Source: a phage
Strand: one strand, 5' to 3'
Length of the DNA stretch: 43,865 nt
NCBI GenBank assembly: GCA_032298335.1
Contig: GCA_032298335.1_4702.1
Below are positions 5,848 to 37,669 of the stretch, piece after piece (within the stretch, counting starts at the first letter, position 1; every line of letters starts with the position of its first letter). A program made the position numbers and the translations under genes. The notes below the pieces were generated by a model, which was not told the DNA's origin, did no database searches, and saw only the letters and a list, made by a program, of their open reading frames with translations.

Positions 5848-5868
5848 ATTTACCGGACACTATAGGAT
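5848..5868 (+). promoter_or_regulatory. Phage RNA polymerase promoter variant (ATTTACCGGACACTATAGGAT)
   Basis: Matches the window consensus ATTTACTGGACACTATAGAAG except at -11 and +3/+4. Confidence 0.6.
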
Positions 5869-6027: not shown

Positions 6028-6032
6028 TTCGT

Positions 6033-6053
6033 ATTTACCGGACAGTATAGATA
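6033..6053 (+). promoter_or_regulatory. Phage RNA polymerase promoter variant (ATTTACCGGACAGTATAGATA)
   Basis: Promoter-like sequence with C to G at -5 and a changed +3; upstream of the gp1.1-like and primase genes. Confidence 0.5.
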
Positions 6054-6079
6054 AGACTAACTTACTTTGGGATTTAACC

Positions 6080-9516: not shown

Positions 9517-12063
9517 ATGAAATCAATTGATTGGAAGAAGGAAGCGGAAGGGCGCATCCTAGTTATGGACGCCGAGGCGAAAGGTCTACTTGATGCTATA
9601 CGCTATGGTCATCGTGAAGACGTGCATATCATCTGCTGTATGGACCTGTTGACTACAGAGGAGTTTCTCTTCTTCGACCCGTATGAGATGCGTGACCCTG
9701 AAGCAAGAGAACGCCTGAAGGAATGGGAAGGTCATCAAGATGGTGACTTGGTTGATGGTGTTAACTTCCTGAAGCACTGTGAGGCTATTGTGTCGCAGAA
9801 CTTCCTAGGGTATGACGGTCTTCTCTTTGAGAAAGCATTCCCTGATATTTGGAAAGGCTTTAACTATACCGAGAAGCGCGGTAAGGGCAGACTCCGTGCT
9901 GACCTGTGTCCGGTGCGAGTCATGGATACGCTGGTGATGAGTCGCCTGTTAAACCCCGATAGACGCCTTCCTCCGCAAGCATATGCCAAAGGTATGGGTA
10001 ACGTCGCCCCTCACTCAATTGAGGCGCACGGCATCCGTATAGGTCGCTATAAACCGGAGAACGAGGACTGGTCTAAACTAACTGACCACATGGTTCACCG
10101 TGTACGTGAGGACGTGGCGATTGGTCGTGACTTGTTCCTCTGGCTCTTTAACGGGGAATGGATGGAGCACAAACGCCGTGGCGTGAATAAACGCACGGGC
10201 CTAGGCATTGAGACAGCCTTCCACATGGAGTCCATTGTGGCGCTGGAGATGAGCCGTCAGGCCGAGCGCGGGTTCCGTCTGGACATCGACAAGGCTTTGG
10301 CCCGATGCGAAGAATTGGACGCTAAGATTGATGAGACAGTCGCAGCGTTCCGCCCTCACATGCCTATGCGTATCAAGTCTAAACCTTTTAAACCGGAAGA
10401 AAAGAATGAAGTATGCCAACGCGCAAATGAGTATGGAGCTAGCAACAATATACCTACTGTCCTTGACCCCTCACACTTTCTTCATGCCGAGAGACGAGGA
10501 GATCGCAAGACAGTATGGAGTGTCACTACTAAGTCTGGTGATTGGTCGGCTAGTGTCAAGAAAGACTTTCCTCACCTTAGAGGAAACCGTAATGACACGC
10601 CAAGCATCAAGTGGATTGGCGCTTACTCGCCTGTTACTTTCGAAGAGATTCCCTTGGGTAACAGGGATGCAGTTAAGCAAGTGCTCTATGAGTATGGATG
10701 GAAAGGTGTTGAATTTAACGATACCGAGCAAGCTCATCTCGATGAGCACGGAGTGTTACCAAAACCTTGGAGTGGTAAGATAAATGAAAAGTCCCTCACT
10801 TTATGGCAAGAAAGAGCCGCACGTGAAGGTAAAACAGCCCCTGATTGGTGCTTGGGTATCGCTGCATGGTACATACTCGTATCCCGTCGTGGTCAGATAC
10901 TCAACCGTGGTGACGTTGAAGCCTTCAACGAGAAGGGAACGTGGCCCTCGCAGGCTGGTGTACGAAAGTGTCGCGGCCTTGTACCTGTAGCATTCAACAA
11001 GGAGCTAGGAATCAATGCGCAGCAATACTACGAGAGGTACGGATGTTGGCCTACGTCTGACAAAGATGACGGAGAGTGGCGTGTTCCAGCTGTTGCTATT
11101 AGTATTGGCACTTCTACGTTCCGTATGCGTCATCGTAACGTGGTTAATATTCCTGCCCGTGGCTTGTATCCTTTACGTGATTTATTCATAGCAGGGAAAG
11201 GCAAGCTAATCCTTGGTTGTGACGGTGCAGGTCTTGAACTGCGTGTCCTGTCTCACTTCATGAATGACCCTGAGTACCAAGAGATTGTACTGCACGGTGA
11301 TATTCATACGCATAACCAGATGAAGGCTGGTCTTCCTAAGCGTGATATGGCGAAGACGTTTATATACGCCTTCCTCTATGGTTCTGGTATAGCCAACCTT
11401 GCAGCAGTCTGCGGTGTTACTGAGGAAGAAATGAAGGAAGTTGTGGCAAGATTCGAGATTGAACTACCGTCTCTTGCACGTCTTCGTGAGAATGTTATCG
11501 CACAAGGTAACAAGTTTGGCTACCTGCAAGCACTTGATGGGCATTGGGGTCGCATCCGCATGTCTGGTGGTGAACTTAAAGAGCACACGATGCTTAACGT
11601 ATTACTCCAGATGACTGGCTCTTTGTGTATGAAATATGCATTAGTCAAGGCATTTGCAGTAATGCGCAAGGAAGGTGTAGCTTTGGATGCTATGGGAAAT
11701 CCTTGTGGTGTGGCTAACGTGCATGATGAAATCCAGATGGAAGTTCCTGAAGAGGAGGTCTTGTATCTTAACTACGACCTACCTTTCACCTTAGATGGGT
11801 TCGAAACAGAGAAGGCTGCTGTGAAAGCAGTTTTCGATGCAGAGGAGAAACGTGTTCATGTGGATTCTGAAGGACGTATGTGGTCTGCTGCAAACCTAGT
11901 TAGCGTTGATGCTGATGCTGGTGTATTGCATTGCCAGCGCCGTTATCACCGTGCAGGTCATATCATTGCCGACGCCATGACTTGGGCAGGGCAGTATCTG
12001 AAGATGCGTTGCCCGATGGCAGGAGAATATAAGATTGGCGCAAGCTGGAAGGAAACACACTGA
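9517..12063 (+). CDS. DNA polymerase, family A (T7 gp5-like)
   Basis: Motifs DGAGLELRVLSHFM, GDIHTHNQ and AKTFIYAFLYGSG match T7 DNA polymerase motifs A/B; ATG at 9517 with a ribosome-binding site (the ORF track begins at an upstream TTG at 9484). Confidence 0.95.
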   Translation: MKSIDWKKEAEGRILVMDAEAKGLLDAIRYGHREDVHIICCMDLLTTEEFLFFDPYEMRDPEARERLKEWEGHQDGDLVDGVNFLKHCEAIVSQNFLGYDGLLFEKAFPDIWKGFNYTEKRGKGRLRADLCPVRVMDTLVMSRLLNPDRRLPPQAYAKGMGNVAPHSIEAHGIRIGRYKPENEDWSKLTDHMVHRVREDVAIGRDLFLWLFNGEWMEHKRRGVNKRTGLGIETAFHMESIVALEMSRQAERGFRLDIDKALARCEELDAKIDETVAAFRPHMPMRIKSKPFKPEEKNEVCQRANEYGASNNIPTVLDPSHFLHAERRGDRKTVWSVTTKSGDWSASVKKDFPHLRGNRNDTPSIKWIGAYSPVTFEEIPLGNRDAVKQVLYEYGWKGVEFNDTEQAHLDEHGVLPKPWSGKINEKSLTLWQERAAREGKTAPDWCLGIAAWYILVSRRGQILNRGDVEAFNEKGTWPSQAGVRKCRGLVPVAFNKELGINAQQYYERYGCWPTSDKDDGEWRVPAVAISIGTSTFRMRHRNVVNIPARGLYPLRDLFIAGKGKLILGCDGAGLELRVLSHFMNDPEYQEIVLHGDIHTHNQMKAGLPKRDMAKTFIYAFLYGSGIANLAAVCGVTEEEMKEVVARFEIELPSLARLRENVIAQGNKFGYLQALDGHWGRIRMSGGELKEHTMLNVLLQMTGSLCMKYALVKAFAVMRKEGVALDAMGNPCGVANVHDEIQMEVPEEEVLYLNYDLPFTLDGFETEKAAVKAVFDAEEKRVHVDSEGRMWSAANLVSVDADAGVLHCQRRYHRAGHIIADAMTWAGQYLKMRCPMAGEYKIGASWKETH

Positions 12064-12179
12064 TGGATAGGCTTGACATTATTTGCCTATTCTTCACTCT
12101 CTTTCTTACACTCCTTATGCTTGCTTGTTATGGGAGTATGAGACTAGATATACCTGATGAAGAAGAGGGTTACGACTAA
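12063..12179 (+). CDS. Mini membrane protein (38 aa)
   Basis: ATG overlaps the DNA polymerase stop (TGATG); one hydrophobic helix then an acidic tail ending YD. Confidence 0.4.
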   Translation: MDRLDIICLFFTLFLTLLMLACYGSMRLDIPDEEEGYD

Positions 12180-12277
12180 TGCAAACTGCTTTTATTATTC
12201 TTGGTATCATATTATTTATGGTAGTACTCTGGGCCTTCTCTGGCATTGACCCGGATTGTGATGGTAACTACGACTGA
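12179..12277 (+). CDS. Mini membrane protein (32 aa)
   Basis: ATG overlaps the upstream stop (TAATG); one hydrophobic helix then an acidic tail ending YD; same architecture as the preceding peptide. Confidence 0.4.
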   Translation: MQTAFIILGIILFMVVLWAFSGIDPDCDGNYD

Positions 12278-12345
12278 GTTATACTCAAGGTCACTTACGA
12301 GTGGCCTTTATGGATAACTTATCCCTACTTATTTTGTCTAACATG

Positions 12346-12366
12346 ATTTACTGGACACTATAGAAG
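12346..12366 (+). promoter_or_regulatory. Phage RNA polymerase promoter (ATTTACTGGACACTATAGAAG)
   Basis: Exact match to the consensus defined by the other copies in this window. Confidence 0.85.
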
Positions 12367-12432
12367 GAAAGCCTAGACAATCTAGGTTTATAAGGTAGTA
12401 TAGGTAATTAAGTAAATATAGGAGATATAAAC

Positions 12433-12810
12433 ATGTCTATGGTAACTACTCTGGTATTTGTAGCTCAATACTTTCGTGGTCTGGCTAATAAGTTCAAGTC
12501 CAAGGCTATCAAAGCTATTGAGTCTCGCATCGAGGCAGTACAGGCAGAGCAAGTTAAAGTTGAAGAACATCGTAGTTCTAAAATGATTGACCGCCATAAC
12601 CGCTACTATGCATCTCGTGATGACCTTAATGCACGCCAAGTCAAAGAGGTTGAAGAGATGCTGGCACGTCACCAGCAAGAGCGCGACAGTCTGAAAGCTG
12701 AATTTGAAGAGAACAAGGCATCCATCGCCCTTGTACACCAATCTGCATCTGACAGTCTGAAGAAAGAGATTGTTATGCTTGAAATCGAACTGGACAACCT
12801 GACCAAATAA
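12433..12810 (+). CDS. Hypothetical coiled-coil protein (125 aa)
   Basis: AGGAG ribosome-binding site; charged heptad-like sequence. Confidence 0.6.
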   Translation: MSMVTTLVFVAQYFRGLANKFKSKAIKAIESRIEAVQAEQVKVEEHRSSKMIDRHNRYYASRDDLNARQVKEVEEMLARHQQERDSLKAEFEENKASIALVHQSASDSLKKEIVMLEIELDNLTK

Positions 12811-12816
12811 GGAATT

Positions 12817-13116
12817 ATGATGGAAGAAGTAATTCAAGCTAAACATGTAGGTATCATTTTTCGTGATCTAGAGCAGCGTAAAGTTGCAGGTCACACTCGT
12901 CTGGCTAAAGAGGAAGACACCGCAATCACTACGGTAGAACAAGCAGATGCCTATCGTGGTCCGGAGTTCACTCAAGGTGAAACTTGTCACCAATTGAGCC
13001 TATCACTTTGTGACACTATGGCTATTGTAAATGTGCAAGAAGTCGAAGAGGGTGAGTGTGTCAGTTACATCTACCCTTTAGATACTATTGCACGCATTAA
13101 GGTAATCCATAAGTAA
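12817..13116 (+). CDS. Hypothetical protein (99 aa)
   Basis: ORF with a ribosome-binding site; no motif recognised. Confidence 0.55.
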   Translation: MMEEVIQAKHVGIIFRDLEQRKVAGHTRLAKEEDTAITTVEQADAYRGPEFTQGETCHQLSLSLCDTMAIVNVQEVEEGECVSYIYPLDTIARIKVIHK

Positions 13117-13135
13117 TTACTGGACACTATAGAAC
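13115..13135 (+). promoter_or_regulatory. Phage RNA polymerase promoter (AATTACTGGACACTATAGAAC)
   Basis: Consensus core CACTATAGAA; overlaps the upstream stop codon. Confidence 0.8.
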
Positions 13136-13276
13136 AATAGGTCGGCTTAGTTCGGCCTATGATTGTAAAGTGTTGAACCATTGTGCATCTTGCACAACCC
13201 GATACCGTATCGGGCTTTCTAGTGAGTACATGCTTGTGCTCAGTACAAAGCTAACTGACAATAGGAGACTAAATAA

Positions 13277-22804: not shown

Positions 22805-22825
22805 ATTTACTGGACACTATAGAAG
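22805..22825 (+). promoter_or_regulatory. Phage RNA polymerase promoter upstream of the capsid gene
   Basis: Exact consensus ATTTACTGGACACTATAGAAG. Confidence 0.85.
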
Positions 22826-24084: not shown

Positions 24085-24092
24085 CACCTATG

Positions 24093-24125
24093 CCCTATCT
24101 ACCTTGCGTAGGTAGGGTTCTTTTT
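24093..24125 (+). terminator. Intrinsic terminator after the capsid gene
   Basis: 10-bp stem CCCTATCTAC / GTAGGTAGGG (one G-U pair), loop CTTGC, then TTCTTTTT. Confidence 0.8.
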
Positions 24126-24138
24126 GTTAGGAGGATTC

Positions 24139-28000: not shown

Positions 28001-30948
28001 TGGCAATTGAGCGACAAGCAGTACAAGGTCTGCCACAAGTGCAGGCCACTTCTCCTAATGTCATGACCTTTGCACCTCAGCGAGTTGGAGGTGTGGAGGC
28101 TGGTGTAGCTTCTACCTCCGGTAGTCGATTTATCGAAGACCTTATTCGAGCAGCCAGTAGTGTAGCTGATGTAACCACTGGTATCCTTAATCAAAAGATT
28201 GAGGAAGATAAGGTTGTTCAAATGGAACGGGCATATAACGGATTAATGCCTTCTGAGGATGCAACTCGTGGTGGCGCTCGTGCTAACATGCTTGTCAAAG
28301 CTCAACTGCTAGCTAATGATGAAGCAGCACGAATGAAAGACATGGCTACTCGTTTCCAAGGGACGGATGACGAGTGGACACAACTTATGGTTGACTCTCG
28401 TAATGAGATGCAGAATAAGCTGTTCCAGCAATACCCTGAGTTGCAAGGTGACAAAGATACTATGCGTATGGTCACTAATGTCTTCCAAGAACAGCAGCCT
28501 CAGATTTGGGCGACACGAACCCAGCATAAACTTGACCGTGAACAAGCAGACCGTGAGGATACCTTTGACGGGCGAGTGGCTTCTACTTGGGATTCTAATA
28601 TTGACCCTGAAGCATCTGGCTATGCTTTACAGGAACGAATCCGCGAAGGTCTTACTCAAGGATTACTACCTGAACAGATGCACAAGAAGTTAGTCCAGCG
28701 AGCAATTTCACTTGCACAAGGCGGTGATGTTAGCATGGCTGAAGCCCTGAAGTATGTGAAGGACGATAAGGGTGTTTCTGTTTATGCTAAGAATCCACAG
28801 CTTATCACAGCCATCACTAGTGGTAATGCAGTTTGGGCTAGGAATAATGTAGCTGATGTAACTCGTATGTCTTTCGAAGTTAAAGAATCATACCTTGCAG
28901 GTGATTTAACTGATGAAGAATTGTTGGAACGAGCACAGCACATTAATAATCTGACAGGTAACTATGTCTTCTCTAATCCAGAACTAGAGGCACTGATGCG
29001 CCAACGGGCTAAGCAGAATGCAGAGCTAGGTGCAATGCAGGATATGCGACGTGAGCTTTACTCCGACCGCCTGACTGGCTTCCAAGGTAAGACTGATAAA
29101 GAGAAGAAGGCTTACATTGATGTTATCAAACAGGATAGCCAACTTTATGCAGACCAGCAAATCAAACAACGTGGCTTGGATCCTTACAGTCAAGAGGCTG
29201 AAGCTATTCGTGGTGCAGTGGAAGTGCAGCGTCTGCAATTCATGAACTCCAAAGGCTTAGTGGATGACACCTTTGAGTCTCGTATCAAAGCCATGGAATC
29301 TATGCTATCGCCTGAGCACTTTGCCAAGGGCGAACCACAGGAGTTGATGACTATTCGCCAGTTGTGGGAACAGTTGCCAGAAGAGAGCCGAGGTGTCTTT
29401 GGTGACACGGTTAATGGCTACATGGATAACTACAACACTGCACTACAAATGGGAGAGACACCTTTGCAGGCTGCAAGGTTTGCGCGTGAAGCACAGCAGA
29501 AATTCTCTCGTACTGAGAAGGAAACCAAGAAGTTCAACTCAGCTATTGGAGATGCACTGGATGAGGTGTCTGGTGCTGGCTGGTTTGATGGTAAAACCGA
29601 AGTGTCAGACTTAGGTAAAGCTATTGCGGAAGAAGAGTTACGAGCTAAGGCCAATATGTTGTGGTCTAGCGGTATGCGTAACATGGATTCTATCAAGAAG
29701 GCTTTAATTACTTGGGGCAACAAACGCTACACTCAATCAGAGGATGCAAAGACTTCCGGTGGCTATTTCATTAAAGGTGATTACACTTCTGCATCTGATA
29801 TGCTTATGTCAGTTGGGAAAGGTGTAAACCCTACCGATGTCCCTCTGGCGCTTGGTAGGTATGTAGAAACACAGATGCCAGAATTGAAGAAGGAGCTTCA
29901 AGAGTGGGAAACTAAGGATGATGTGTACATTGATTACAATGAACAGAAAGGAACTTTTGTGATTCGTGCTGGTGCAGCAGGTCGCCCTCTTTCTGGAGTA
30001 ATCCCTGTAACTTCTTTGGATACCACTTCACTACTGGATTCTGCCTATCAGAAGAAAGTAGAAGAACGAAATAAAGGCGAGTATGTTCACCCTTATCGTA
30101 CAGATATTGGTGCACAAGAGCCTATGCCAGCTAAACCAACTGCCAAAGATATTGGTAAATTTGGACTAGCTAACTTCCTCATGTCTTCTGCTTTTGCTTC
30201 TGGTGAGAATCTACCTTCTAATTTCGAGATTAACTATCGAGGTAATATGCAACAATTCTATGACAAGCTAGCTATGGATGAGAATAAAGATAAAGTTGGC
30301 TTTAATAAGGCAACTGGAACCTTTACTCCATATAAAGACGCTCACGGCGAGTCTATCGGTTACGGTCATTTCTTAACGGAAGAAGAGAAGCGAAACGGGT
30401 ATATTAAGATTGGCGATGAACTAGTTCCCTATCGAGGATCTATGTCTCAGCTTACAGAGAGTAAGGCTCGCGCTCTTATGGAGCAAGATGCTAAGAAGCA
30501 TGTGCCTTCTACTCGTGACTGGAAGATTCCGTTTGACCAGATGCATCCTGCACAGCAACGTGGCTTGATGGATTTAACCTACAATTTAGGTAAAGGTGGA
30601 ATCCAGAACTCACCGCGTGCTCTTGCTGCATTCAAAGCTGGTAAGCTTACGGAAGGCTTTATCGAAATGCTGGGCACTGCATCAAGTGAAGGTAAACGTA
30701 TTCCGGGCCTACTGAAGCGACGCGCTGAGGCATACAATATGGCAGCTGCTGGTGGTGTACCTAAGATCACAGAAGTGGAGACGAGGGAAGATGGCTCTAT
30801 GTGGGTTAAGTTTGGTGGACCTATGCCAGCAGGCTCTGTTTCTGCGTGGACGCATAAACGTATTGGAGCCGATGGCTGGTATCAGGTTTATGAGGCTGCA
30901 CCTACCAAGTTAGCTAAAGACTCTAAGGTAGGTAAAGTTAAATTGTAG
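28000..30948 (+). CDS. Internal virion (core) protein with C-terminal lysozyme-like domain
   Basis: 982 aa; the C-terminal region (about nt 30250-30750) contains YKDAHGESIGYGHFL and downstream blocks resembling T4 lysozyme YKDTEGYYTIGIGHLL. Confidence 0.8.
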   Translation: MAIERQAVQGLPQVQATSPNVMTFAPQRVGGVEAGVASTSGSRFIEDLIRAASSVADVTTGILNQKIEEDKVVQMERAYNGLMPSEDATRGGARANMLVKAQLLANDEAARMKDMATRFQGTDDEWTQLMVDSRNEMQNKLFQQYPELQGDKDTMRMVTNVFQEQQPQIWATRTQHKLDREQADREDTFDGRVASTWDSNIDPEASGYALQERIREGLTQGLLPEQMHKKLVQRAISLAQGGDVSMAEALKYVKDDKGVSVYAKNPQLITAITSGNAVWARNNVADVTRMSFEVKESYLAGDLTDEELLERAQHINNLTGNYVFSNPELEALMRQRAKQNAELGAMQDMRRELYSDRLTGFQGKTDKEKKAYIDVIKQDSQLYADQQIKQRGLDPYSQEAEAIRGAVEVQRLQFMNSKGLVDDTFESRIKAMESMLSPEHFAKGEPQELMTIRQLWEQLPEESRGVFGDTVNGYMDNYNTALQMGETPLQAARFAREAQQKFSRTEKETKKFNSAIGDALDEVSGAGWFDGKTEVSDLGKAIAEEELRAKANMLWSSGMRNMDSIKKALITWGNKRYTQSEDAKTSGGYFIKGDYTSASDMLMSVGKGVNPTDVPLALGRYVETQMPELKKELQEWETKDDVYIDYNEQKGTFVIRAGAAGRPLSGVIPVTSLDTTSLLDSAYQKKVEERNKGEYVHPYRTDIGAQEPMPAKPTAKDIGKFGLANFLMSSAFASGENLPSNFEINYRGNMQQFYDKLAMDENKDKVGFNKATGTFTPYKDAHGESIGYGHFLTEEEKRNGYIKIGDELVPYRGSMSQLTESKARALMEQDAKKHVPSTRDWKIPFDQMHPAQQRGLMDLTYNLGKGGIQNSPRALAAFKAGKLTEGFIEMLGTASSEGKRIPGLLKRRAEAYNMAAAGGVPKITEVETREDGSMWVKFGGPMPAGSVSAWTHKRIGADGWYQVYEAAPTKLAKDSKVGKVKL

Positions 30949-34000: not shown

Positions 34001-34210
34001 GGCTTTCAGACTAAGGGTTTGATAGACCAAATACCACTAGTAGGTGTTGGTCAAGATGCATATCGTTTAGCAGATTCTATAACTAAATATGCAGAGGGTG
34101 ATGCAGAAGGTGTAGATGTGGCACGTAGGGTTTTACGCTTAGTGCCTCTAACTAATGTAATAGGAATCCAGAACGCATTGCGTTATGGCTTAGATGAACT
34201 GGAGGATTGA
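31013..34210 (+). CDS. Large internal virion (core/ejection) protein
   Basis: 1065 aa; position equivalent to T7 gp16; GGAGGA ribosome-binding site. Confidence 0.8.
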   Translation: MEQDIKTNWAGYVQSTPEPFSIEAAPVSAPTIRQRNELQEQVLESKADADILGAVGAAFQNEWLAFGGKRWYDRATADFTPQPDFEIQPEQREALRFKYGTDMMQTITEGVRSEDELNFRIQNADEDLERNKRIAQAGWVGSVATIGAAVLDPVGWVASIPTGGAAKVGLVGRAVRGAIAAGVSNAAIESVLVQGDMTRDLDDIMVALGSGMAMGGVIGAVARGRATKLSEQGDDRAASIVRSADAGDRYVRAVADDSIGAMRVKGEEVLTEGAFDISSKGEDLLKTLQREGNAIDMTPRRWAGTLSALGTVVHSSHDASVRGLGARLFESPQGLGMQKASASLMQNTNLNRLKSADMNRFNDGFDLWLKENNINPVAGHTNSHYVQQYNEKVWEAVRIGMDESTPKSIRMAAEGQQAMYREALALRKRSGEAGFENIKADNKYMPDIFDTMKARRQFDRIGKDIDKEDIIELFSRAYQNGARKIPKEVADEIARAQVNRVVDATLTGRMSFEKAMSGQTKAEYEAIMRKAGFSDEEIEKMVEALDNKETRDNISNRAKMSLGLDVTQEYNGIRMRDFMNTNVEELTDNYMKEAAGGAALARQGFSTYQAALNAIDLVERNARNAAKDSKASLALDEEIRQMREGLRLIMGKSIDVDPQALSTKMLRRGRDITGVLRLGQMGFAQLGELANFMGEFGIAATTIALGKQFRFTSKALRSGDGFFRDKNLAEVERMVGYIGEDNWLTTKGARPDEFGDVTTVKGMMAHFDQSMNSIRRAQTNLSLFRMAQGSLERMTNRQIALSFIDHLEGKKIIPQKKLEELGLTQEFMTNLQKHYDANSKGSGLLGFDTMPYVMGETLANAIRRKSGLIIQRNFIGDEGIWMNKALGKTFAQLKSFSLVSGEKQFGRGIRHDKIGLAKKTAYGFALGSIVYAAKAYVNSIGREDQDEYLEEKLSPKGLAFGAMGMMSTTAVFSLGGDFLGGLGVLPSELVQSRYEAGFQTKGLIDQIPLVGVGQDAYRLADSITKYAEGDAEGVDVARRVLRLVPLTNVIGIQNALRYGLDELED

Positions 34211-35172
34211 TGAGTTATACTTTCACAGAACATATAGCCAACGGTACGCAAGTAACCTATCCCTTTAGATTTGCTGGCAGGGATAAAGGCTATCTTCGTG
34301 CCTCAGATGTGATAGTGGAATCTCTTCAAGGTAACACTTGGATTGAGGTTACATCTGGCTGGCAACTAACTGGCATGCACCAGATTACTTTTGATGTAGC
34401 ACCAGTTGCAGGTTTGAAGTTCCGTATTCGAAGGGAAGTACAAAAGGAGTATCCATACGCTGAGTTTGACCGTGGTGTTACCTTGGATATGAAGTCTTTA
34501 AATGGTTCTTTCATTCATATACTGGAGATTACACAGGAGTTACTTGACGGGTTTTATCCAGAAGGATACTTCATTAAACAGAATGTAAGCTGGGGCGGCA
34601 ATAAGATTACTGATTTGGCTGATGGCACAAATCCTGGAGATGCAGTAAATAAAGGGCAGCTTGATGCCATCGACAAGAAGCATACAGATTGGAACGCCAA
34701 ACAGGACATTGAGATTGCTGGCCTTAAGGTTGGTATGACTTCTGGTATTGCGCACAGAACTGTTCCTTGGTACACGATAGCCAAAGGTGGTGAGATTTCC
34801 GTAAAACCACCTTATGAATTTCAAGATGCACTAGTTTTCCTTAATGGGGTATTGCAGCACCAAATTGTAGGCGCATACTCTATAAGCAACAACACTATCA
34901 CTTTCGCAGAGCCGCTTGTGGCGGGTACAGAGGTGTATGTGCTGATTGGTAGTCGTGTGGCTACATCTGAACCTAATATTCAGTTAGAGTTGAACTTTGA
35001 CTTAGTAGAAGGCCAACAAGTAGTACAGATTGGCTCTGCATTTAAGTACATTGAGGTCTACCTTGATGGATTATTACAACCTAAACTTGCTTATCAGGTA
35101 GACGGTGACATTGTTACTTTCTCAGAGGGAGTGCCAGAATGCCGGATGACTGCTAAGATTATCACAGCATAA
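34210..35172 (+). CDS. Tail-fibre adaptor protein (T7 gp17 N-terminal-domain-like)
   Basis: 320 aa; tail-attachment-domain-like N-terminus; sits directly after the core proteins, while the actual tailspikes are at the right end. Confidence 0.75.
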   Translation: MSYTFTEHIANGTQVTYPFRFAGRDKGYLRASDVIVESLQGNTWIEVTSGWQLTGMHQITFDVAPVAGLKFRIRREVQKEYPYAEFDRGVTLDMKSLNGSFIHILEITQELLDGFYPEGYFIKQNVSWGGNKITDLADGTNPGDAVNKGQLDAIDKKHTDWNAKQDIEIAGLKVGMTSGIAHRTVPWYTIAKGGEISVKPPYEFQDALVFLNGVLQHQIVGAYSISNNTITFAEPLVAGTEVYVLIGSRVATSEPNIQLELNFDLVEGQQVVQIGSAFKYIEVYLDGLLQPKLAYQVDGDIVTFSEGVPECRMTAKIITA

Positions 35173-35181
35173 GGAGGTGGG

Positions 35182-35376
35182 ATGATTAACTCAGAACCGG
35201 TAGATAGTGGTGTGAAGCTTGCGCCACCTGCATTAGTCTCAGGTGGGTACTTCCTCGGTATCAGTTGGAATGATTGGGTTCTTATAGCTACATTCATTTA
35301 TACTGTATTACAAATTGGCGATTGGTTTTATGTAAAATACAAAGCTAGGAGAGATAAGCGTGAGCGTACACAATAA
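35182..35376 (+). CDS. Holin (T7 gp17.5-like)
   Basis: 64 aa; LGISWNDWVLIATFIYTVLQIG parallels T7 holin FGLSLNEWFYVAAIAYTVVQIG; one transmembrane segment and a basic C-terminus. Confidence 0.7.
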   Translation: MINSEPVDSGVKLAPPALVSGGYFLGISWNDWVLIATFIYTVLQIGDWFYVKYKARRDKRERTQ

Positions 35377-35659
35377 ACATGCAGCTACAGAGGATGAGGT
35401 TGGCATTCTGCATGGTGCTATTACCAAAATCTTCAATAAGAAAGCACAGGCAATACTGGACACTATAGAAGAAGACCCTGATGCAGCATTACATTTAGTG
35501 TCTGGTAAGGATATTGGTGCGATGTGTAAGTGGGTTCTTGATAACGGCATTACCGCCACACCTGCTGCACAGCAGGAAGAGTCCAAGTTATCTAAGCGCC
35601 TCAAGGCTATCCGAGAGGCATCCAGTGGTAAGATAATTCAATTCACTAAGGAGGATTGA
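35360..35659 (+). CDS. Terminase small subunit (gp18-like)
   Basis: 99 aa ORF immediately upstream of, and coupled to, the large terminase gene; GTG start with an AGGAGAG ribosome-binding site. Confidence 0.6.
   Translation: MSVHNKHAATEDEVGILHGAITKIFNKKAQAILDTIEEDPDAALHLVSGKDIGAMCKWVLDNGITATPAAQQEESKLSKRLKAIREASSGKIIQFTKED
35451..35471 (+). promoter_or_regulatory. Internal phage promoter inside the small terminase gene
   Basis: CAATACTGGACACTATAGAAG: the 18-nt core is identical to the consensus, the upstream 3 nt differ. Confidence 0.55.
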
Positions 35660-37557
35660 TGGCTAAGGCAAGAGAATCACAAGCGGAGGCTCTTGCCAGA
35701 TGGGAGATGCTACAGGAGTTACAGCAGACCTTTCCTTTCACAGCGGAAGGTTTGCTTCTCTTTGCAGATACAGTTATTCATAACTTAATTGCAGGCAACC
35801 CTCATCTGATTCGTATGCAGGCGGATATCTTGAAGTTCCTATTTTACGGACACAAGTACCGCCTCATCGAAGCGCCTCGTGGTATCGCTAAGACAACACT
35901 ATCAGCAATCTATACGGTATTCCGTATTATTCATGAACCGCATAAGCGTATCATGGTTGTGTCCCAAAACGCCAAGCGAGCAGAGGAAATCGCAGGTTGG
36001 GTAGTTAAAATCTTCCGTGGCTTAGACTTTCTTGAGTTTATGCTGCCGGATATCTACGCTGGGGACCGTGCATCCGTTAAGGCGTTTGAGATTCATTACA
36101 CCCTACGTGGTAGTGATAAGTCTCCTTCTGTATCCTGTTACTCAATCCAAGCAAGTATGCAGGGTGCTCGTGCTGATATTATTCTAGCGGATGACGTAGA
36201 GTCGATGCAGAATGCTCGTACGGCAGCGGGCCGTGCCTTGCTTGAGGAACTGACTAAGGAGTTTGAATCTATCAACCAGTTTGGGGATATCATTTACCTT
36301 GGTACACCTCAGAACGTAAACTCTATCTACAACAACCTACCTGCTCGTGGTTACTCTGTTCGTATCTGGACTGCGCGTTACCCTTCAGTAGAGCAAGAGC
36401 AATGTTATGGCGACTTCCTTGCACCTATGATTGTGCAGAATATGAAGGACAACCCAGCACTGCGCTCAGGGTACGGGTTGGATGGTAATAGTGGTGCACC
36501 TTGTGCCCCTGAAATGTATGATGATGAAGTCCTGATTGAGAAGGAAATCTCTCAGGGTGCTGCTAAGTTCCAGCTTCAGTTCATGCTTAACACTCGCATG
36601 ATGGATGCTGACAGATACCCATTACGCCTGAACAATCTAATCTTCACCTCGTTTGGTACAGAGGAAGTCCCTGTGATGCCTACGTGGAGTAATGATTCCA
36701 TAAACATCATTGGTGATGCACCTAAGTATGGTAACAAGCCTACGGATTTCATGTACAGACCTGTAGCTCGCCCATACGAATGGGGTACTGTCTCCCGCAA
36801 GATTATGTATATTGACCCTGCGGGTGGCGGTAAGAATGGGGATGAGACGGGTGTGGCTATCGTATTCCTGCACGGCACATTCATTTACGTGTATCAGTGC
36901 TTCGGTGTGCCGGGTGGATACCGCGAATCGTCCCTGAATCGCATTGTGCAGGCCGCAAAGCAGGCGGGTGTTAAAGAGGTATTCATTGAGAAGAACTTTG
37001 GTCATGGCGCGTTTGAGGCGGTAATTAAGCCGTACTTTGAACGAGAGTGGCCTGTAACGCTGGAAGAGGATTACGCCACCGGACAGAAAGAGTTGCGTAT
37101 CATTGAGACGCTGGAGCCGCTCATGGCAGCCCATAGGCTTATCTTCAATGCAGAGATGGTGAAGTCAGACTTTGAGTCGGTACAGCACTATCCGCTTGAA
37201 CTACGCATGTCCTACAGTCTTTTCAATCAAATGTCGAACATAACGATTGAGAAGAACAGCCTCCGGCACGATGACCGCCTAGACGCCCTGTATGGCGCTA
37301 TACGGCAATTAACTTCTCAGATAGACTATGACGAGGTTACACGGATTAATCGCCTCAGAGCGCAGGAGATGCGAGATTACATCCATGCTATGAACACACC
37401 TCATCTACGCAGGGCAATGCTATATGGGGATTACGGTACTGAGCGAAGAGTGACCAACACTTCCGTAGCGATGCAGCAGCGAGTTTACGGGCAGAACTAC
37501 CGAAATAAATCGGCAAGCAGAAATACACTTTCTGCAAGGATTTCAAGGACTTATTAA
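35659..37557 (+). CDS. Terminase large subunit (gp19-like)
   Basis: 632 aa; ATPase N-terminal half and nuclease C-terminal half expected from size and position; ATG overlaps the small-subunit stop. Confidence 0.9.
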   Translation: MAKARESQAEALARWEMLQELQQTFPFTAEGLLLFADTVIHNLIAGNPHLIRMQADILKFLFYGHKYRLIEAPRGIAKTTLSAIYTVFRIIHEPHKRIMVVSQNAKRAEEIAGWVVKIFRGLDFLEFMLPDIYAGDRASVKAFEIHYTLRGSDKSPSVSCYSIQASMQGARADIILADDVESMQNARTAAGRALLEELTKEFESINQFGDIIYLGTPQNVNSIYNNLPARGYSVRIWTARYPSVEQEQCYGDFLAPMIVQNMKDNPALRSGYGLDGNSGAPCAPEMYDDEVLIEKEISQGAAKFQLQFMLNTRMMDADRYPLRLNNLIFTSFGTEEVPVMPTWSNDSINIIGDAPKYGNKPTDFMYRPVARPYEWGTVSRKIMYIDPAGGGKNGDETGVAIVFLHGTFIYVYQCFGVPGGYRESSLNRIVQAAKQAGVKEVFIEKNFGHGAFEAVIKPYFEREWPVTLEEDYATGQKELRIIETLEPLMAAHRLIFNAEMVKSDFESVQHYPLELRMSYSLFNQMSNITIEKNSLRHDDRLDALYGAIRQLTSQIDYDEVTRINRLRAQEMRDYIHAMNTPHLRRAMLYGDYGTERRVTNTSVAMQQRVYGQNYRNKSASRNTLSARISRTY

Positions 37558-37576
37558 TTACTGGACACTATAGAAG
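37556..37576 (+). promoter_or_regulatory. Phage RNA polymerase promoter after the terminase gene
   Basis: AATTACTGGACACTATAGAAG; overlaps the terminase stop. Confidence 0.85.
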
Positions 37577-37649
37577 GAAGGCCCAGATAATAAGAGAAAT
37601 AATAGGTAATATATAGGTTAACCTAGGTTATATAGGTATGCCTTAGTAT

Positions 37650-37669
37650 AGGTGTACTCCTGTACACCT
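37650..37669. repeat. Hairpin-forming inverted repeat AGGTGTAC-TCCT-GTACACCT
   Basis: 8-bp perfect stem with a 4-nt loop in the AT-rich leader after the promoter, followed by a tandem TACCTTAC x2. Confidence 0.7.

Follow-up and report, generated by a model that had tools for sequence, protein, structure and literature searches.

A candidate late promoter for the phage RNA polymerase within the small-terminase gene of a K1-5-like coliphage

Within the coding sequence of the small terminase subunit (gene 39) of a K1-5-like coliphage, we found a site that closely resembles the intergenic promoters of the same phage. Our preferred reading, to which we give a probability of about 70%, is that the phage's single-subunit RNA polymerase would use this site as an auxiliary late promoter, functional although short of the full consensus. 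The DNA analyzed, hereafter called the window, is a stretch of 43,865 nt. The 4 kb around the site share 96–98% identity with the Escherichia phages KMB14, Sem1, and K1-5, and 91% with K1E. From its sequence, the window is the genome of a K1-5/K1E-like coliphage, of the genus Vectrevirus and the subfamily Molineuxvirinae, that is, the SP6 group of T7-like podoviruses.

Position of the site and its likeness to promoters of the same genome

The local gene order runs from internal virion protein to tail adaptor, holin, gene 39, and gene 40 (Table 1). The homologues of gene 39 in K1E, K1-5, and SP6 carry the annotation terminase small subunit, and the ATG of gene 40 (35659) overlaps the TGA stop of gene 39 by one base. 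In relatives, the terminase region is a hotspot for insertions of HNH homing-endonuclease genes, which occupy at least four distinct positions: between genes 39 and 40 (L008, L021, L042, L043, and L048), at codon 389 of gene 40 (L002, which is K1E, L005, L023, L025, and L050), at codon 539 of gene 40 (L014), and between the holin gene and gene 39 (L047 and L042). None was present in the window.

Table 1. Coordinates of the site, of the surrounding genes and signals in the window, and of a second embedded site in related phages
Feature	Position	Strand	Details
Promoter-like site for the phage RNA polymerase	35451–35473	+	−17 to +6, CAATACTGGACACTATAGAAGAA; in frame in gene 39, codons A31–E38
Predicted transcription start, +1 G	35468	+	Same place relative to TATA as in the nine intergenic promoters
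Predicted leader of the internal transcript	35468–35658	+	191 nt, covering the last two-thirds of gene 39; deduced from the predicted +1 and the ATG of gene 40
Tail adaptor gene	34207–35172		
Holin gene	35182–35376		
Gene 39, small terminase subunit	35360–35659	+	Host gene of the site; ORF of 99 aa, GTG start
Gene 40 Shine-Dalgarno sequence	35648–35654	+	AAGGAGG, direct reading; 4 bases before ATG
Gene 40, large terminase subunit	35659–37557	+	
Nearest upstream strong phage promoter	22804–22826	+	39.6 bits; just before the major capsid gene
Terminator, hairpin and T-run	24092–24128	+	11-pair stem, then TCTTTTTGTT; directly after the major capsid gene
Next strong promoter downstream	37555–37577	+	37.8 bits; conserved core begins 7 nt past the stop codon of gene 40
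LGDTIG site of relatives	L003 (SP6), 29393–29415; L007, about 3751–3786		Gene 36 in SP6; also in L011, L013, and L015–L020

The start site was assigned by the SP6/T7 promoter convention, in which +1 is the G that follows TATA. This inferred assignment places −17 at 35451 and +4 at 35471; in K1-5, the predicted +1 corresponds to about position 35505. The interval of the original prediction, 35451–35471, was thus correct and corresponds to −17 to +4. When read in the frame of gene 39, positions 35450–35473 are GCA ATA CTG GAC ACT ATA GAA GAA, which confirmed that the match lies in frame within the small-terminase gene and encodes AILDTIEE, as had been proposed. The motif ACTATA, followed by G35468, stands on the plus strand, in the same orientation as all genes. 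The predicted +1 falls at codon 37 of the 99 codons of gene 39, that is, within the coding sequence and not at its end, and in the same direction. The gene 40 ATG follows 191 nt downstream, so that the earlier figure of about 190 nt holds.

Nine strong copies of the promoter occur in intergenic DNA, with the G at −9 located at 5856, 8654, 12354, 13123, 14352, 17483, 22813, 37564, and 39236, and they yield the consensus tATTTACTGGACACTATAGAAGr. The gene 39 site is identical to this consensus at 19 of 19 bases from −14 to +5; the exact core match of 18 nt that had been claimed was therefore borne out and even slightly conservative. Over the longer span from −17 to +6, 21 of 23 bases agree when the A at −16, also present in the strong promoters at 13123 and 37564, is counted as a natural variant. 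The two mismatches are C for A at −17 and A for T at −15, and the A and the T at these positions are invariant across the nine strong promoters. The upstream element (−17 to −13) reads CAATA versus ATTTA in the consensus; four of its five bases are A or T, and two differ at invariant positions. As for the specificity bases (−12 to −8), they are CTGGA, as in five of the nine strong promoters of the window, and GGTGA in SP6 promoters. The interpretation first given to the site was supported in every part that can be tested by sequence.

To rank the site, we used a position-weight matrix built from the nine intergenic promoters, with the gene 39 site left out, and scored both strands. The site reached 25.6 bits and ranked tenth in the genome, both strands included. 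The nine intergenic promoters scored 32.2–40.4 bits, placing the gene 39 site 6.6–14.8 bits below them, and the best background score on either strand was 7.5 bits. The gene 39 site was the sole strong intragenic match. Two weaker promoter-like sites in intergenic DNA had scores close to that of the gene 39 site, namely TATTTAGCTGACACTATAAGAGA at 1763–1785 (24.1 bits) and TATTTACCGGACAGTATAGATAA at 6032–6054 (21.0 bits).

With at most two mismatches, the 14-mer core GACACTATAGAAGA had 12 matches, all on the plus strand, versus 0.42 expected, and with at most three mismatches, the 21-mer of the site had eight matches versus 0.00 expected (100 shuffles). Under the window's own codon usage, the probability of finding exactly these six codons, given the peptide ILDTIE, was 4 × 10−4. 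ATA, the least-used isoleucine codon (17%), occurs twice in the site, and GAC (37%) and CTG (17%) are also minority choices. A chance origin of the match was rejected by both the shuffle counts and the codon-usage probability.

A scan for host sigma-70 promoters found no site between 35070 and 35926, and sigma-70-like sites were not enriched in the region as a whole (30 found versus 33 expected). The GenBank records of K1-5, K1E, SP6, and ACG-C91 hold no promoter features. Among the matches listed from 84 GenBank records with the site stretch, none annotates a promoter there, the annotation being CDS only. A full-text search of the accessible literature for transcript 5′ ends or transcript mapping in Vectrevirus/K1-5 returned none. 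The site may already be tabulated in the primary literature on K1-5/K1E/SP6 promoters.

Synonymous constraint, origin, and expected strength

By parsimony, we counted changes in 33 distinct Vectrevirus sequences covering gene 39 and codons 1–320 of gene 40. Third codon positions had changed 2.45 times each on average. In contrast, the six codons of ILDTIE accounted for 2 third-position changes, versus a mean of 14.7 per six-codon window (Poisson P = 5 × 10−5). Eight of 414 six-codon windows were as low as this block, and five of these eight lay in one other stretch. Synonymous heterozygosity of the block, calculated on a set of 31 sequences, was 0.021 versus a mean of 0.19; the block was tied for the lowest value, and 5 of 400 windows were no higher.

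The synonymous trough spans −15 to +3, and past +3, the window's own intergenic promoters also diverge. The adjoining codons vary freely, as seen at the third position of Ala31 and at Pro40, Leu44, and Glu38, the last of which reads GAA, GGG, GGA, GGT, GCA, or GAT. Taken over the wider 19 nt from −14 to +5, conservation was unremarkable, as the Glu38 codon (+4 to +6) varies.

Only one other near-invariant synonymous stretch was seen in genes 39 and 40 of the 33 Vectrevirus sequences. It comprises codons 78–87 of gp39 (SKRLKAIREA; 35591–35620 in the window), with one to two third-position changes per six codons versus the mean of 14.7. This stretch is located 40–70 nt upstream of the gene 40 start, near the HNH insertion point of relatives, and has no promoter likeness, which indicated that other constraints do act in gene 39.

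Homologues of gp39 from SP6, 19 IMG/VR contigs, 12 metagenome contigs, and 18 GenBank phage records were compared at the place of the site. Vectrevirus sequences read ATA CTG GAC ACT ATA GAA throughout, with three exceptions: L008 has GAC to GAT (C-to-T at −7), L014 has GAC to GGC (A-to-G at −8, Asp to Gly), and L010 has A-to-G at +3. The core of the promoter after gene 40 was invariant in the same sequences. At the corresponding place, SP6 has ATC CTA GCT GCG GTA GAA (AILAAVEE), and the Proteus/Klebsiella-like clade has ATC CTY GAT GCT ATY GAG. The contig L028, whose gp39 is 85% identical, has ATT CTT GAT GCT ATC GAG and no site in gene 39, but it carries a K1-5-type AATTACTGG promoter after gene 40. 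The TACTGG-type polymerase specificity thus appears older than the site.

Six substitutions separate the L028 state from the Vectrevirus state, five of them synonymous and one Ala-to-Thr, and all go onto the consensus base. The flanks of the site have nothing in common with the flanks of true promoters, and the protein alignment of gp39 with SP6 gp39 shows no indels through the site or on either side. This points to an origin by point mutation and not by insertion of a promoter copy; a copy or recombination origin was ruled out on these two grounds. We propose that the site would have arisen in the Vectrevirus ancestor, through the five synonymous changes and the Ala-to-Thr replacement, and that it would have been kept since by selection on synonymous sites.

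The two imperfect positions have a counterpart in the protein. Position −17 is the second base of the Ala31 codon and −15 is the first base of the Ile32 codon; the consensus base would change Ala to Glu at the former and Ile to Leu at the latter. All relatives examined keep both residues, apart from L022, the most distant of them (70% gp39 identity), where residue 32 is Leu. Position −16 is a free third position and is polymorphic (A in 24 sequences, T in 5, and G in 1), T being the consensus base. Besides, the promoter core has only two stop-free reading frames, the third frame containing TAG. Given that −17 and −15 fall on conserved residues and that two frames are available, the promoter would be approximately as good as the protein permits.

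Because it departs from the nine strong promoters at −17 and −15, where these never vary, the gene 39 site is probably weaker than they are. In the T7 polymerase–promoter structure, the upstream element is read through the minor groove, which is poor at telling A:T from T:A; such a reading mode, combined with the AT-rich CAATA at −17 to −13, argues for a predicted partial activity. On the other side, a single change at −13 lowered the in vitro output of one T7-like polymerase about four-fold (PMC13029058), so upstream AT-rich positions can matter. That study, the only one found to contain the K1-5-type core sequence, examined promoter variants at +2, +3, and +5 for the corresponding polymerase, and none at upstream positions (PMC13029058).

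Core substitutions in two relatives, together with the existence of SP6-type relatives without the site, suggested that it is auxiliary. Moreover, the changes at −7 in L008 and at −8 in L014, where substitutions would be expected to be critical, indicated that it is probably dispensable, and SP6, the Proteus/Klebsiella-like phages, and L028 manage without it. From these comparisons, the gene 39 site looks constrained but dispensable.

Late transcription and alternative explanations

Between the capsid promoter at 22813, with the terminator that follows the capsid gene (24092–24118), and the promoter at 37564, the gene 39 site is the sole candidate promoter. The terminator occupies a position analogous to that of the Tφ terminator of T7. 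Given its hairpin, the tail genes through gene 40 need read-through over about 11 kb, unless the gene 39 site fires. Since a strong promoter follows 7 nt past gene 40, only gene 40 would gain uniquely from an internal promoter.

In the mechanism that we propose, the polymerase would bind −17 to −5, melt TATA, and start at G35468. The transcript would open with a leader of 191 nt, in which the 3′ part of gene 39 is left untranslated, and continue into gene 40 with its own strong ribosome-binding site. This would add gene 40 mRNA beyond that supplied by read-through, which begins about 12.6 kb upstream at the capsid promoter and passes the capsid terminator, and it would shift the balance of the two terminase mRNAs toward the large subunit. 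Where relatives have an HNH gene between genes 39 and 40, that gene would also be transcribed from the site. The predicted fold of the leader leaves the Shine-Dalgarno sequence and the AUG unpaired in the centroid structure (z = −2.05, weak evidence).

Further downstream, we noticed a hairpin, AGGTGTACTCCTGTACACCT, at 37650–37669, about 85 nt after the promoter at 37564 and in the 5′ leader of the next transcript. In phage KAW1A4500, the homologous hairpin bears the annotation of a putative terminator, although the one in the window does not stand at a transcript end.

Of the alternatives, the one that survives best, although we consider it unlikely, is that the sequence is a cryptic or inactive look-alike: the −17 and −15 changes, or transcription traffic from upstream, would prevent useful firing, and its persistence would reflect shared ancestry. 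A look-alike would fit with the mismatches at two positions that never vary in the nine strong promoters, with the lower score, with the tolerance of changes at −7 or −8 in two relatives, with the outgroups devoid of the site, and with the lack of a promoter annotation at the site among the GenBank matches listed. However, the genomes are not that close, since 23 distinct sequences of genes 37–40 were on average 89% identical in pairs, with 80% for the least similar pair. Two changes in the six codons of the block, versus an average of 2.45 per third position, make a local trough between freely varying codons, which shared ancestry alone does not predict. Lastly, all six substitutions from the outgroup state reach the consensus base, with rare codons, which also speaks against a look-alike.

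We hold it to be quite improbable that the block is conserved for a reason other than initiation, be it a homing-endonuclease target or flank, an RNA structure, or slow translation at the two rare ATA codons. Many relatives do carry HNH genes, whether between genes 39 and 40 or inside gene 40, and codons 78–87 of gp39 provide a near-invariant stretch devoid of promoter likeness. Yet none of these constraints predicts base-for-base identity over 19 nt with the phage's own promoter, conservation stops at about +3, after which the window's own promoters diverge, and the distance from the site down to the HNH insertion points is about 190 nt or more.

In T7, the RNA polymerase has a part in replication and in the processing of concatemers, as do particular promoters close to the ends of the genome, and conserved promoters can act as linkers for recombination. 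A polymerase-binding site with such a non-mRNA role, either in recruitment or pausing for DNA packaging or as a recombination hotspot between co-infecting phages, would suit a location within the packaging-gene cluster, but we regard it as the least probable alternative of all, since the site is about 8 kb from the window's right end with no repeat or junction-like feature seen nearby, and the SP6 gp39 homology is indel-free on both sides, which argues that the site is not a module boundary.

None of these rivals accounts for both the identity with the cognate promoter and the synonymous trough from −15 to +3. A functional, sub-consensus auxiliary promoter thus stays our preferred reading.

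Comparison with known promoters and implications

Promoters for phage polymerases within coding sequences are already established, and the gene 39 site is a further example. In T7, φ4c is annotated at 12671, inside the coding sequence of gene 4A (11565–13265; gene 4A/4B) in NC_001604. It is an internal class II promoter that adds transcripts for downstream genes. Like the gene 39 site, it goes with the single-subunit RNA polymerase of its phage, is embedded far within a coding sequence, and points in the same direction. In contrast with the gene 39 site, it occurs in the Studiervirinae and not in the Molineuxvirinae, has a different consensus, and is embedded in a primase/helicase gene rather than a small-terminase gene, in the middle rather than the late region. 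Also, φ4c is an accepted T7 promoter, whereas the gene 39 site is a predicted one.

The canonical promoters of the same genome, such as those at 22813, 37564, and 39236, share with the site the −14 to +5 sequence, the orientation, and the initiating GAAGA. They differ from it in being intergenic, in having A at −17 and T at −15, and in scoring 32–40 bits versus 25.6. Furthermore, the cores of the canonical promoters are invariant in relatives, whereas the gene 39 site changed in two of them.

A second embedded sequence was observed in SP6 and many relatives, where an SP6-type promoter-like stretch, TTA GGT GAC ACT ATA GG, lies in frame in the internal-virion-protein gene and encodes LGDTIG (Table 1). 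It resembles the gene 39 site in being in frame in a late structural gene, in its GAC ACT ATA reading frame, and in its C at −17. It differs in its SP6-type specificity bases, TAGGTG, and in its location in another gene, about 6.2 kb farther upstream. Three clades retain its synonymous positions, and these include some Vectrevirus phages, which have TACTGG-type promoters of their own. The LGDTIG site was absent from the window, whose allele of that gene (at about 29782) is 30% identical. Seen together with the gene 39 site, the LGDTIG site suggests that embedded late promoters may recur and shift in the Molineuxvirinae.

A tentative extension, possible but which we would not favor, is that in-coding promoters have turned over: the LGDTIG site would be ancestral, the gene 39 promoter would have been built de novo in Vectrevirus, and window-like lineages would now rely on gene 39 alone. 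The lineages relying on the gene 39 promoter would then be those that carry the divergent virion-protein allele without the older site. Much less likely still, a gp39 lacking its N terminus, with Met55 as its start, would be made from the internal transcript as well.

Mixed promoter types were also seen on one contig. The IMG/VR contig L012 has a K1-5-type AATTACTGG promoter after gene 40 (7755) and an SP6-type ATTTAGGTG promoter before the tailspike module (10103), a combination that hints at mosaicism and at a degree of cross-recognition. The SP6 promoter is reported to be transcribed also by an SP6-like polymerase with a consensus promoter that is apparently of the K1-5 type (PMC13029058).

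Pipelines that seek phage promoters in intergenic DNA only would miss the gene 39 site, and a published promoter screen was limited to intergenic DNA (PMC13029058). If the site is active, recoding or refactoring gene 39 would remove a promoter unintentionally, and cloning gene 39 where the K1E polymerase is expressed would introduce one unintentionally. The levels of large- and small-terminase mRNA would be uncoupled, which would matter for models of late expression in therapeutic phages of the K1-5/K1E type. More generally, an active site would mean that a compact phage gains a regulatory signal without extra DNA, by way of the synonymous positions of an essential gene, and that the constraint on the protein decides which promoter bases remain imperfect.
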